Below are positions 25,469 to 28,393 of a DNA stretch of 64,000 nt, piece by piece (within the stretch, counting starts at the first letter, position 1; every line of letters starts with the position of its first letter). The position numbers and the translations under genes were made by a program. The DNA comes from an uncultured Candidatus Binatia bacterium (GTDB lineage Bacteria; Desulfobacterota; Binatia; Bin18): positions 635,769 to 699,768 of the forward strand of contig OY282457.1 in the NCBI GenBank assembly GCA_958296235.1. The letters are read 5' to 3'. The notes under the pieces are model-generated. The model saw only the letters and a program-made list of their open reading frames with translations, was not told where the DNA came from and ran no database searches.

Positions 25469-26344
25469 ATGTCAGAGACGCGCTATGACTATGGTGGCGA
25501 TGAATATCTGCTGGTGGTCTTCAGCGAGGCAATGGACCTCGCCATTAACTTCAAACTACAGTCGATCTGTCGCGAGATTGAGCGCCGGCGTCTCCCCGGC
25601 GTCATTGAGGTCTGCCCGGCCAACGCCTCCTATATGGTCCATTTCCGGCCCGAAGAGACCCATCCCGACGCCCTGATCCGAACCCTCAAGGACCTCGAAC
25701 GCGAGATTCAGTCCGCGGAAACACTGACCTCCCGGCTGGTCGATATCCCGGTGCTGTTCGATGATCCCTGGACCCAGGAGTGCGCCAAACGCTTTGCCGA
25801 CCGGCACCAGGACCCGTCGGTGTCCAACCTCGAATACCTGATGCGGGAGAACGGCTATTCCTCGAAGGAGGAATTCATTACCGCCTACTGCGACCGGCCG
25901 TACTGGATATCCATGGTCGGTTTCGTGCCCGGTACGGCCTGGTGCTATCGCATGTGCCCGCCCGAGCAGGCCATTCAGGCTCCCAAATACATCCGCCCAC
26001 GCACGGACACCCCTGAGCGCGCCGTCGCTCATGCCGGCGTGTTTCTCTGTATTTACCCCGTGCAGGGGCCGGGCGGGTATCAGATGGTCGGCATGTCTGC
26101 GGTGCCCGTGTATGACCCGGAGGAGCGTATGCCAGACCTCCAGGGCCGCTATATTCTGGCCCAGGCCGGGGATCGCTGGCAATTCCGGCCCATTGATATG
26201 GATGAGTATAATGACATCCGCGCCCAGGTCGAAGCCGGCAGCTATCGCTATCGGATCGTCGAACAGGACTTTCAGCCGAGCCGCTACCTGGACGACCCCG
26301 CGGCCTACCTGAAGCGGCTGAAAGAAGAAGCCGGGACATGCTGA
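25469..26344 (+). CDS. pxpB: 5-oxoprolinase subunit B (KipI/allophanate hydrolase subunit 1 family)
   Basis: MSETRYDYGGDEYLLVVF, CPANASYMVHF motifs. Stop overlaps the original pxpC ATG at 26338. Confidence 0.8.
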   Translation: MSETRYDYGGDEYLLVVFSEAMDLAINFKLQSICREIERRRLPGVIEVCPANASYMVHFRPEETHPDALIRTLKDLEREIQSAETLTSRLVDIPVLFDDPWTQECAKRFADRHQDPSVSNLEYLMRENGYSSKEEFITAYCDRPYWISMVGFVPGTAWCYRMCPPEQAIQAPKYIRPRTDTPERAVAHAGVFLCIYPVQGPGGYQMVGMSAVPVYDPEERMPDLQGRYILAQAGDRWQFRPIDMDEYNDIRAQVEAGSYRYRIVEQDFQPSRYLDDPAAYLKRLKEEAGTC

Positions 26345-26526
26345 ACGTCATCGAGCCCGGCCTGTCGACCACCGTCCAGGACCTCGGGCGGCTGCACTGG
26401 TACCACATCGGCATGCCGCCGGCACAAACAGCGGGGGGCGAATCACAACCACTGGGGAGCAGACAGGAGCAAGGCTGTGAGTTGGAGGCGCACAGAGAGA
26501 GTAACCACAACTCCCAGCCGGATTGA
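26338..26526 (+). pseudogene. Orphaned 5' fragment of pxpC (first 28 codons intact, then unrelated sequence)
   Basis: MLNVIEPGLSTTVQDLGRLHWYHIGMPP is identical to the start of the intact pxpC at 27389. It diverges at 26421. Confidence 0.6.
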
Positions 26527-26752
26527 GGTGAACATCCGGGCCATTCCACGCCTTTCCCCTGACGGCTGGAAGCTTCACTCGCTTACAGAGAAGATCCCAA
26601 TCTCACTCGTTGGCGCCGTTCCGAAAAACTATTTGTCCTATGGCGACCCCCGCTCTCCTGCAGTCGTTGGCTACATTGCAAAAAAGGGCCGACAGCAAGC
26701 CGCCGCGCGCGAATGTGTGACCGAGGAGATCATTAAAATCATTTTGAGTTGA
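26477..26752 (+). CDS. Hypothetical ORF A of inserted cassette
   Basis: 91-aa ORF. Its stop overlaps the start of ORF B. No recognisable domain. Confidence 0.2.
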   Translation: MSWRRTERVTTTPSRIEVNIRAIPRLSPDGWKLHSLTEKIPISLVGAVPKNYLSYGDPRSPAVVGYIAKKGRQQAAARECVTEEIIKIILS

Positions 26753-26949
26753 TCGCCTGGATCATGGAGAACCATCCGAATACGCTTGGGAAACCAATTC
26801 GTAAGCTCTTTAGAGCGATTCACCTTCCATCCATTGAGCGCATGCTCCAGCAGCGGTTTCGTAGGGTTGTCACACCGCTCCGAATTCGGTGTATTATGGA
26901 ACTCCTGACCTTTCGGATTAAACATCTTCAACGAGAGGTTCTGCTATGA
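26749..26949 (+). CDS. Hypothetical ORF B of inserted cassette (weak HTH-like LGKPIRKLFRAIHLPSIERML segment)
   Basis: TTG 26749 or ATG 26764. Stop TGA overlaps the ATG of the HipS-like ORF (ATGA). Confidence 0.25.
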   Translation: MIAWIMENHPNTLGKPIRKLFRAIHLPSIERMLQQRFRRVVTPLRIRCIMELLTFRIKHLQREVLL

Positions 26950-27377
26950 TGGAAAAGATGGAAAAACTTGCTGAGCTGCTACGGAATCAGAGGCGATCTT
27001 GGGGCATCCACATTTTCCGGGCCGGTCGGGAAACTTCTCCTGAGCAGTACCTGGAGATATATAGAGAGACGCCGGGTGGACGCTCTCTGGTAGGCAGCCT
27101 TTCCCAGGAGGAGGAGAAATTTGTGTTTCGTTATGATCCAGACTACCGAGCGGAGCCTATCTCCGCCTTTCCTGATCTCGCCAAGGAGTACCGCTCCGAG
27201 GAATTGTGGCCTTTCTTCTCGGTCCGAATTCCGCCGATTGAGCGGGAAGATATGCGCGAGGCAATAGCAGCCCGCAACATCAAATCCGACCAACCCATTG
27301 AGCTATTGGGGAAGGTAGCAAAATTTTCCGTCACCAACCCGTACGAATTTCAACTCAACAACGACAACGACGCCTGA
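26946..27377 (+). CDS. HipA N-terminal-domain-only protein (HipS-like), no kinase domain
   Basis: Matches HipA N-subdomain blocks: LVGSLSQ (RVGEL), FVFRYDPDY (FKYAPEW), PISAFPDL (PLSLSLPL), FFSVRIPPIEREDMREAIA (FFDNLLPEGPIRETLA), LLGKVAKFSVTNPYEF (LLQAVGRECAGAL). Ends 3 nt before the pxpC ATG. Confidence 0.5.
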   Translation: MMEKMEKLAELLRNQRRSWGIHIFRAGRETSPEQYLEIYRETPGGRSLVGSLSQEEEKFVFRYDPDYRAEPISAFPDLAKEYRSEELWPFFSVRIPPIEREDMREAIAARNIKSDQPIELLGKVAKFSVTNPYEFQLNNDNDA

Positions 27378-27379
27378 GC

Positions 27380-28393
27380 ATGTTACGTATGCTGAACGTC
27401 ATCGAGCCCGGCCTGTCGACCACCGTCCAGGACCTCGGGCGGCTGCACTGGTACCACATCGGCATGCCGCCTTCAGGCGCGCTGGACAATTTCGCGTTCC
27501 GGGTCGGCAACCTGCTGGTCGGCAACGACGAGGCCGCGGCCGGTCTCGAAGTCACCTATGCCGGACCTCGGCTGGAGGCGACCGCGGACACCCTGATTGC
27601 GGTCACCGGGGCGGACATTGACTTTCGCATCAACGACCGACCGGCCGGCCAATGGCAGGCGCAGGCGGTCAAGCCTGGGGATAGTATCAGCCTGGGCGGA
27701 GTCCGGCGCGGCGCGCGAGCCTATGTGTGCGTGGCCGGCGGGATCGCTGTGCCGGAGCGGCTGGACAGCCGCTCCACCTATACGCTGGGCCGCTTCGGCG
27801 GTCTGGACGGCAGGAAACTGCTCGGCGGCGATCAACTCCCACTGGGGCAGCCGCGGGTCTCACCCGCAACAATGCTGGGCCGGATGTTCGACCCGGCCCT
27901 GGTTCCGACAGTCGGGAAAACGCTTGACGTGCGAGTCGTCATGGGCATGTGCAGCCACCGCGTGACCCCGGCCAGCCTGGCCGAGTTCCTGGCCGCGGAC
28001 TGGGAGGTCACCACCGAAGCGGACCGGATCGGCTATCGTCTGAAAGGCCCCAGGTTCGAGTTCAATGCCGGCGAGCGACCCTTTGGCGCCGGCGCCGACC
28101 CCTCGAACGTCGTCGATCTGGGCTACCCGATCGGCTCGATTCAGATTCCGGGCGGACTGGAGGCCATCGTGCTGCTGAACGACGCGGTGACTGGCGGCGG
28201 CTACACGACCATCGGCACCGTCATCACAGCCGACCTCGATCTGGTTGCCCAGGCTTCTCCCGGCTGTCACATCCGCTTTCACGCGGTCGGTATTAACGAG
28301 GCATTACAGGCCCGCCGCGCGCGCGCGGCGCGCATCGAACAGGTCCGTCTGGAGTTGGGGATTTTCGATCAGGCCGGGGCGTTGGGCCAGTGA
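27380..28393 (+). CDS. pxpC: 5-oxoprolinase subunit C (KipA/allophanate hydrolase subunit 2 family), intact copy
   Basis: 337 aa, full-length. ATG 27380 (MLRMLNV) or 27389 (MLNV). Confidence 0.85.
   Translation: MLRMLNVIEPGLSTTVQDLGRLHWYHIGMPPSGALDNFAFRVGNLLVGNDEAAAGLEVTYAGPRLEATADTLIAVTGADIDFRINDRPAGQWQAQAVKPGDSISLGGVRRGARAYVCVAGGIAVPERLDSRSTYTLGRFGGLDGRKLLGGDQLPLGQPRVSPATMLGRMFDPALVPTVGKTLDVRVVMGMCSHRVTPASLAEFLAADWEVTTEADRIGYRLKGPRFEFNAGERPFGAGADPSNVVDLGYPIGSIQIPGGLEAIVLLNDAVTGGGYTTIGTVITADLDLVAQASPGCHIRFHAVGINEALQARRARAARIEQVRLELGIFDQAGALGQ

Follow-up and report, generated by a model that had tools for sequence, protein, structure and literature searches.

How does a pair of genes come to lie between two exact copies of the beginning of a host gene, with that gene itself left whole? 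The question is raised by a stretch of 64,000 nucleotides (contig OY282457.1 of assembly GCA_958296235.1, from an uncultured Candidatus Binatia bacterium; hereafter the window), whose closest named relatives are metagenome-assembled genomes of Binatia. An 83-nt segment beginning at the ATG of pxpC, the last gene of a predicted 5-oxoprolinase operon, occurs at positions 26338-26420 and again at 27389-27471, on either side of an inserted cassette that carries a predicted toxin-antitoxin module. The movement of toxin-antitoxin modules between genomes, where they occupy very many locations and usually lack mobility genes, is mostly unexplained. This locus provides a clean natural system: in three related species, some genomes have the 1.5-kb cassette and others lack it, always at precisely the same site. 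The sequence patterns suggest that the flanking 83-bp duplication is the handle by which it is gained and lost.

The duplicated pxpC start and the genes between its copies

The two copies of the 83-nt segment, detected by repeat search and by direct reading of the letters, are 100% identical when aligned and lie 1051 nt apart from start to start, as the original prediction for this locus had stated. Chance recurrence of an exact 83-mer within 64 kb is effectively impossible. The left copy (H_L, 26338-26420, plus strand) is the displaced 5' end of pxpC from its ATG and aligns to the single copy found in genomes with an empty site. The right copy (H_R, 27389-27471, plus strand) is the functional 5' end of the gene and exhibits one difference from the allele of the conspecific empty-site genome L159. 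The 968 bp between the copies (26421-27388) have a guanine-plus-cytosine (GC) content of 0.48-0.56 against 0.60-0.72 in the flanks, which bears out the AT-richer insert described earlier.

The host genes around the insert, all on the plus strand, are those of pxpABC. The pxpA gene (24589-25401, LamB/YcsF family; Pfam PF03746 LamB_YcsF, E = 1.3e-73) is followed by pxpB (25451-26344, CT_C_D; Pfam PF02682, E = 4e-41) and, beyond the insert, by an intact pxpC of 334 aa (27389-28393, CT_A_B; Pfam PF02626, E = 4.9e-85), which has 334-aa homologues with an identity of up to 91%. Adjacent LamB/YcsF, CT_C_D, and CT_A_B genes constitute the pxpABC layout of 5-oxoprolinase, which is the predicted function of the operon, and the gene order is constant in all related loci. 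The start of pxpB was set by the 297-aa gene calls in the conspecific loci L155-L159; a longer open reading frame (ORF) from 25412 is also listed. The TGA stop codon of pxpB overlaps the ATG of the pxpC stub (ATGCTGA). This stub and the intact pxpC had both been recognised before, but the stub had been given 28 codons, whereas its ORF runs from the old pxpC ATG into the cassette for 62 codons (26338-26526, plus strand; also a 62-aa gene call in L155-L157) and overlaps the start of the kinase gene of the insert.

The inserted cassette (26421-27388, plus strand) measures 968 bp here and 1504-1515 bp where its kinase gene is intact, and it is absent from empty sites. It opens with a 56-nt leader (26421-26476, plus strand) exhibiting an AGGAG-like ribosome-binding site ahead of the GTG start codon of the kinase gene. 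The leader is 85% conserved in the occupied loci L001 and L071 and is not common to L008, a related cassette in another context, whose homology begins at the GTG. Three ORFs are listed in the insert: ORF1 (26477-26752), ORF2 (26749-26949), and ORF3 (26946-27377). The first two correspond to the halves of a single HipA-like (HipJ-type) kinase gene. The 5' fragment (26477-26734, plus strand, approximately residues 1-86) matches the L001 kinase in tblastn at 89% over residues 1-89, and the 3' fragment (26735-26949, plus strand, approximately residues 269-339) matches it at 86% over residues 266-334. Alignment to L157, in which the gene is intact, places the junction of a 547-bp internal deletion at 26734/26735: positions 24001-26734 of the window align to positions 9-2742 of L157, and positions 26735-29500 to positions 3290-6052. 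The deletion takes out approximately residues 87-268, including the DRHxxN and FDTAR motifs, and shifts the frame. The intact L157 kinase has SLVGAVPKNY, DRHAMN (197-202), and FDTAR (222-226), and only the first of these, a Gly-rich stretch in the 5' fragment, is retained in the window. A 30-mer across the deletion junction is identical in the window and in L156, and L155 and L157 keep the intact gene. The kinase fragments exhibit ratios of nonsynonymous to synonymous substitution (dN/dS) of 0.22-0.30 relative to L001, which indicates that the deletion is recent relative to the history of the cassette; the value for the 3' fragment is 0.30, so that it is still gene-like.

As ORF1 and ORF2 are the halves of one gene split by a frameshifting deletion, the TTGA overlap between them is an artefact. 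In contrast, the ATGA overlap between ORF2 and ORF3, where the stop codon of the 3' kinase fragment overlaps the next ATG, is the true kinase/hipS junction. The original prediction was thus right about the existence of the ORFs and about the ATGA overlap, and wrong about the number of genes: the insert is best read as one broken kinase gene and one hipS gene, not as three genes. In the annotation, ORF1 and ORF2 together are one pseudogene and the short pxpC-like ORF is a stub.

ORF3 is an intact hipS-like gene (26946-27377, plus strand) whose 143-aa product is a stand-alone HipA N-terminal subdomain and a putative antitoxin. Couple_hipA is the sole Pfam domain found in it (30.1 bits, cut-off 22.5), and its dN/dS is 0.30. 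It has 78 homologues of 130-170 aa, the closest of which outside the window's species is that of L001 (83% identical), also located between pxpB and pxpC and preceded by an intact 334-aa HipA_C kinase gene. An 11-nt trailer (GCATGTTACGT, 27378-27388, plus strand), read directly and exhibiting one A/G difference in L001 and L071, leads from the hipS stop to the pxpC ATG. At 27380-27399, the cassette tail ATGTTACGT stands immediately before ATGCTGAACGT and resembles a degenerate extra copy of the pxpC start; the tail also supplies an in-frame upstream ATG (27380), 2 nt past the hipS stop. Exact look-ups of ORF3 and of pxpC with the upstream ATG gave no match, and the relatives were reached through homologues. 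Rfam gave no match, either at E <= 1 for the insert or at the gathering score for the whole window, and the window contains no tRNAs.

With respect to known systems, the insert is predicted to be a two-gene hipJS-type toxin-antitoxin cassette, in which a short HipA-like Ser/Thr kinase (the putative toxin) precedes a HipS-like putative antitoxin. The kinases of L001, L071, and L157 have 334-339 aa and exhibit HipA_C as their only Pfam domain, that is, they are short core kinases without N-subdomain-1. The PADLOC profile PDC-M03A matches the kinase at 1e-31 over most of its length, and PDC-M03B matches the HipS-like protein at profile positions ~20-105 of 245 only, so a full-length match to both components of PDC-M03 is not obtained. 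The hipJS layout, with a kinase gene followed by hipS and no helix-turn-helix (HTH) protein, was described from sequence analysis by Gerdes, Baerentsen & Brodersen 2021 (PMC8262856). In that work, hipJS and hipIN are the clade XI short Hip kinases, for which 279-321 aa are quoted, and none of the clade XI modules had been tested experimentally. The cassette resembles hipJS and hipIN in its short HipA-like core kinase without N-subdomain-1, in the downstream HipS-like gene, and in having no HTH partner. It differs from them in the length of its kinases (334-339 aa against 279-321 aa), in an extra N-terminal stretch of ~45 aa in the HipS-like protein, which has no HIRAN domain, and, in the window, in the broken kinase gene. 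Membership of the kinase in the HipJ subclade is putative, its sole support being the PDC-M03A match.

A second relative is HipBST of E. coli O127 and Haemophilus influenzae (PDB 7ab3, 7czo), in which HipS is the antitoxin and HipT the kinase. The ORF3 family profile matches the HipS chains 7czo_A and 7ab3_B in the PDB with E values of 2e-6 to 5e-6, and by analogy HipS probably replaces the missing N-subdomain of the kinase and neutralises it. However, the gene order of the cassette is reversed, with the kinase first, there is no HipB, and the kinase is distant, its sole sequence match in the PDB being CtkA (E = 9e-4). The dN/dS is ~0.3 for both the kinase and the hipS genes, and hipS is kept in many loci of the wider cassette family in which the kinase is truncated or lost. 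Toxicity of the kinase and its neutralisation by HipS are predicted, and the module is a new member of a toxin-antitoxin type known bioinformatically. Its low GC content, together with homologous cassettes in unrelated contexts and phyla, marks the insert as foreign.

Occupied and empty sites in related genomes

Occupied sites are found in three species-level groups, comprising the window with L155-L157, L001 with the short contigs L002-L007, and L071. All occupied genomes exhibit the same left junction, where GGCATGCCGCC is followed by GG(C/T)ACA, and the same right junction, where GCATGTT(A/G)CGT is followed by ATGCTGAAC, while the flanking genes of the three groups are 84-94% identical. Empty sites, for which a search had been suggested, are present as well: pxpABC is uninterrupted between pxpB and pxpC in L068-L070, L072-L074, L158, and L159, and each of the three groups has some. 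The empty L159, a circular contig of 4.63 Mb, comes from the sample that also yielded L155-L157, and its flanks are ~99% identical to those of the window. The flanks of the empty L068 and L072-L074 are 97-100% identical to those of L001, and those of the empty L158 are 96-99% identical to those of L071. A host segment is thus duplicated at both ends of the insert and single at empty sites, as in insertion-duplication. Within the window's species, three states are observed in relatives from one metagenome sample: intact cassette, toxin-dead cassette, and empty site. Among the loci of the cassette family, only the window group in the wide sense (the three lineages above) has the cassette at pxpC.

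A collapsed or chimeric repeat produced by the assembler, which the original prediction had named as its possible undoing, would have to recur in six or more assemblies made independently of one another, which come from several samples and include circular hifiasm contigs. The same layout is found in L001, L071, and L155-L157, and the deletion junction in L156 is identical, which makes such an artefact very unlikely, to the point of being negligible.

The earlier view that the event is recent does not hold. At the same junctions, the two repeat copies of L001 are 86% identical, the left one with two 1-bp deletions, and those of L071 are ~89% identical; as two other lineages have the insertion with diverged copies, it is old. 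Such a layout in relatives, with copies that have diverged, is what the original prediction had named as evidence against itself. In the species of the window, the window and L157 have identical copies, and there is one difference in L156 and two in L155. The flanks of these four genomes differ by 1.1-1.8% and all four carry the insert, so the copy identity predates strain divergence. A single, very recent Campbell integration in this genome would account for the 100% identity of its two copies and for the existence of a conspecific empty site. Nevertheless, the three further conspecific genomes with 0-2 copy differences, the two other species with the same junctions, and a divergence of ~10% between the window's cassette and those of L001 and L071 make this explanation highly improbable. 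The copy identity in the window would instead reflect homogenisation or re-integration within the species, not an insertion that has just happened.

The cassette and its flanks have had different histories. The cassettes of L001 and L071 are 97.7% identical and their flanks ~91%, and within the window's species the cassette diversity is 0.2-0.9% against ~1.6% in the flanks, which indicates horizontal spread of the cassette. The repeat copies themselves are also mixed. The right copy of L001 exhibits eight differences from the conspecific empty allele in its first ~51 nt, with the gene otherwise 98-100% identical, and its haplotype is that of the left copy of L071 (four differences in 83). The right copy of L071 corresponds to the allele of the L068 group across the repeat, followed by a downstream pxpC of its own species' type. 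The left copy of L001 has 13 private changes, including the two 1-bp deletions, in a genome that matches L068 at 98-100% over the neighbouring 150-300 bp. The single base that distinguishes the two copies of L156 is of the empty-site type on the left and of the cassette type on the right; the empty L159 carries, at the one informative position, the base of the L156 left copy, which is compatible with loss from a kinase-dead allele and no proof of it. A reciprocal-chimera pattern fits L156 and the right copy of L001, and at 5-7 columns both copies of L001 and of L071 differ from the sampled conspecific empty allele. These haplotypes imply that sequence has passed between left and right positions and between species, and the exchanged tracts start and stop either at the ends of the 83-bp segment or no more than about 14-25 nt away from them. 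Taken together, the comparisons indicate that the cassette has moved between lineages and that the two copies exchange sequence with each other.

Proposed gain and loss of the cassette

Campbell-type recombination through the 83-bp segment (H), as originally suggested, remains the best available account of these allele patterns. We propose that the cassette has been lost and re-gained repeatedly by such insertion-duplication, and we consider the chances of this being correct to be about even. Recombination between the two H copies would excise a circle comprising the cassette and one H and restore pxpBC exactly, and a single crossover of such a circle with a chromosomal pxpC start would re-insert the cassette and re-create the duplication, which would keep pxpC whole. 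Host homologous recombination would be the simplest agent of both steps, with H as the putative substrate. Cycling inside one species would keep the two H copies identical, as in the window, whereas transfer between species would yield mosaic or decayed copies and could bring a decayed stub into a clean background; selection would remove products with a damaged segment in the functional pxpC. The duplicated segment would begin exactly at the ATG because the donor context, with hipS 5' of pxpC, and the recipient context, with pxpB 5' of pxpC, stop being homologous there. The empty L068 was also considered as an excision product of L001 and rejected, as it has none of the private changes of the L001 left copy.

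The main rival is one ancient duplicative insertion, for example by a replication template switch or by the fill-in of a long staggered break that copied 83 bp of the target, followed by inheritance. Movement between lineages would then have occurred only by ordinary double crossovers in pxpB and pxpC, with occasional precise deletion and gene conversion, and no circle would re-integrate. The identical junctions in all occupied genomes do indicate a single founding event, and crossovers would be drawn to the highly conserved block at and past the right end of H. In L071 and in L001, neither H copy matches the conspecific empty alleles, as would be expected if occupied and empty haplotypes had long been separate and their flanks had been homogenised. 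Alleles have recombined frequently among these lineages irrespective of the cassette, as is apparent from the mosaic identity in the 5' half of pxpB (window ~25500-25950), where L001 is 94-96% identical to the window and only 85-90% identical to its near-conspecific L068. Three features fit this scenario less well. The left edge of the foreign tract lies no more than ~14 nt from the start of H in two backgrounds (L001 and L071) without a long identity block there, one haplotype sits on the left in one genome and on the right in another, and in two independent insertions (the window and L134) the first base of the duplication is that of a start codon, which a random stagger would be unlikely to produce. 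An ancient duplicative insertion is therefore a possible explanation, to which we attach clearly less weight than an even chance.

For the wider family, scans of genome and metagenome collections yielded ~140 further loci in Binatia, Latescibacterota, Gemmatimonadota, Alpha- and Gammaproteobacteria, Myxococcota, Planctomycetota, and Bacteroidota. Nucleotide homology between L008 and L001 extends from the kinase start codon to 6 nt past the hipS stop, which implies a cassette without conserved ends. Several loci, among them relatives in other phyla, exhibit a host segment duplicated around the cassette: ~399 nt spanning two convergent gene ends in L039, so that both genes stay whole, 305 nt in L024, the 3' end of an ntrC-like gene in both L042 and L056 (the same target), the 3' 34 nt of a tRNA-Tyr gene in L154, and shorter repeats in L061, L066, and L108. 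In the flanked cases, the right copy begins 9-150 nt past the hipS stop, and direct-repeat matches were found in 20 loci against inverted ones in two. The repeats of L063, L067, L034, L130, and L136 were rejected as target duplications, being dispersed or tandem repeats. This family-wide pattern is a lead, not an established rule.

Duplications of the 5' end of pxpC in the window, of the 3' end of tRNA-Tyr in L154, and of the 3' end of the ntrC-like gene in L042 and L056 also have the form of attachment-site (att) direct repeats at a tRNA or gene end. The cassette could accordingly be a minimal att-flanked islet, like a cis-mobilisable element, with H as attL and attR; the tyrosine or serine recombinase acting on it would be encoded at another place in the genome or by a visiting element. 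Its targets are the classical ones of integrase-borne islands, namely the tRNA-Tyr 3' half (L154) and gene 3' ends (L042, L056, L039), gene 5' ends are restored by the element in the window and L134, and the inferred crossovers in the only three genomes informative on crossover position (L001, L071, and L156) might each be placed close to the same end of H. Nevertheless, no recombinase is found in the cassette or its immediate flanks in the window or in the relatives' loci: among ~150 loci, the only such genes seen in or beside the cassette belong to an IS66-family transposase (L042) and to IS256-like copies (L019). The cassette ends are not conserved, as homology between contexts stops at the coding sequences, and repeats of 29-400 bp with unrelated sequences would need many different recombinases. 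Moreover, the near identity of cassette-borne and native H in the window's species requires homologous recombination anyway. We regard the islet explanation as unlikely.

Several points weigh against repeated loss and re-gain through H. Neither a circular form nor an excision junction was seen in the sequences examined, and a graph loop at a repeat would account equally well for the 55-nt terminal overlap of L056. One crossover into the empty alleles sampled fails to reproduce L001 or L071 at 5-7 columns, so that extra events or unsampled recipient alleles must be assumed, which limits confidence to about one half at most. Flanking direct repeats are only modestly enriched relative to pseudo-modules placed elsewhere in the same loci (11/74 against 8/147, p = 0.023 before removal of redundant loci), and ~80% of the family loci have no flanking repeat. 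No vehicle was found, as no relatives occur on viral contigs or plasmids and there is one weak phage match. The proposal gives no account of the founding event that joined the cassette to a pxpC fragment, and it assumes dependence on RecA.

The original prediction also held that the duplication is not a transposon target-site duplication, and this stands. The insert holds only kinase fragments and hipS, has no transposase and no inverted repeat at its ends, and is flanked by a duplication of 83 bp here and of 29-400 bp elsewhere. Target-duplicating transposons, among which IS1549 makes unusually long direct repeats, likewise leave target DNA directly repeated at both ends of the insert; they differ from the cassette, which lacks transposase and terminal inverted repeats, occupies the same junction in several species, and has a duplication that starts exactly at a start codon. 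A diversity-generating retroelement, a group II intron, and an insertion sequence (IS) were dropped as candidates, as no reverse transcriptase, transposase, or terminal inverted repeats were found, and an integron cassette was dropped because the cassette end GTTACGT does not fit the core GTTRRRY.

Campbell-type insertion-duplication is exemplified by suicide plasmids, in which a circle carrying a target fragment integrates by a single crossover, and by lambda-type integration. The cassette shares with it a direct duplication of a host segment flanking the insert, a single copy at the empty site, a loss that would be precise and reversible, and the preservation of the gene by a fragment that includes one of its ends. 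In contrast to these examples, it would represent a natural recurrent route for a 1.5-kb chromosomal cassette without replicon or recombinase, by way of an inferred circle. Islands that restore the end of their target gene include the tRNA-targeting islands and SXT at the 5' end of prfC. In integrase-less att-flanked islets, as in the cassette, the direct repeats are duplicates of a gene end or of the 3' half of a tRNA, the element supplies the displaced gene end, and there is no recombinase inside. These islets are set apart from the cassette by its very variable repeat lengths, by its lack of conserved arm sequences, and by the lack of any identified cognate integrase or parent element.

The coming and going of the cassette thus appears to be an unusual variant of a known mechanism, and literature searches for such a mechanism in toxin-antitoxin cassettes returned nothing specific. 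If confirmed, it would represent a recombinase-free mode of horizontal spread for which a short piece of a conserved host gene suffices, and a path of decay from addictive module to orphan antitoxin to clean loss. A broader and more tentative proposal is that hipJS cassettes form a minimal class of mobile element without recombinase. Each would carry, as a short homing fragment, part of a conserved host gene (its 5' end from the ATG, a 3' end, or the 3' half of a tRNA) and be inserted by host homologous recombination, through a single crossover that duplicates the fragment and spares the gene, with loss then penalised by the toxin-antitoxin pair. If true, a bare two-gene module could in this way pass from one species to another, and its occurrence in several phyla would be accounted for.

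Consequences for the operon and features of related loci

In the window, the insertion has uncoupled the pxpC start from the pxpB stop, and it now lies 11 nt past the hipS stop. No plus-strand terminator was found in the insert and no sigma-70-like promoter in the 56-nt leader, and the sole plus-strand promoter-like match of the insert (26869-26897) is located inside the 3' kinase fragment. Read-through from the pxp operon is therefore the likely source of hipS and pxpC expression, and both genes are probably transcribed with the operon. The remaining hipS appears to be an orphan putative antitoxin. As the kinase gene has been destroyed by the deletion, the cassette could now be lost by recombination between the repeats without a toxin penalty.

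Some loci of the family exhibit arrangements worth noting in their own right. In L154 (814-2601), the last 34 nt at the 3' end of an intact tRNA-Tyr gene and a duplicate of them bound a hipJS islet of 1.66 kb, which is the classical attachment signature of an island, with no integrase. L134 (1278-2854; also L135) represents an independent insertion in front of a different gene, with a 61-nt duplication that starts exactly at the ATG of a downstream 252-aa ORF; the stop codon of its stub ORF overlaps the start of the kinase gene (ATGA), which suggests that the kinase borrows the translation start of the host gene. The kinase/hipS pair of L019 (3715-8368) is bracketed by two direct copies (1.2 kb, 93% identical) of an ORF judged by eye to be an IS256-like transposase, as in a composite transposon, with a group II intron maturase-like fragment (also by eye) inside. 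The whole L056 contig (1-1725) consists of a kinase/hipS pair with identical 55-nt ends, the k-mer overlap of the assembler, and may be a flanking-repeat loop or a circular molecule. In the Binatia genome L008 (4775-5970), the kinase gene directly follows an N-terminal fragment of an HsdM-like type I methylase and a Phd/YefM-like fragment, both recognised by eye; the C-terminus of the kinase is frameshifted, and the cassette appears to lie in a decaying defence and toxin-antitoxin island.

Directly 3' of pxpC, the window has an ORF (28245-28919, plus strand) without a Pfam match, with 224 aa in the ORF list and 171 aa as called in relatives. In the two sister species, a PIN-domain toxin-antitoxin pair and/or hydantoinase A/B genes are found at this position instead, and the pxp operon is therefore variable on its right side as well. 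Farther downstream, a 1304-aa protein (29014-32928, minus strand) exhibits Sel1, two FGE-sulfatase domains, and TonB_C, according to the Pfam families of the identical gene call in L155-L159. Its gene contains a tandem array (30086-31493) of 6.8 copies of a 204-bp unit with 88% identity, which corresponds to protein repeats of ~68 aa.

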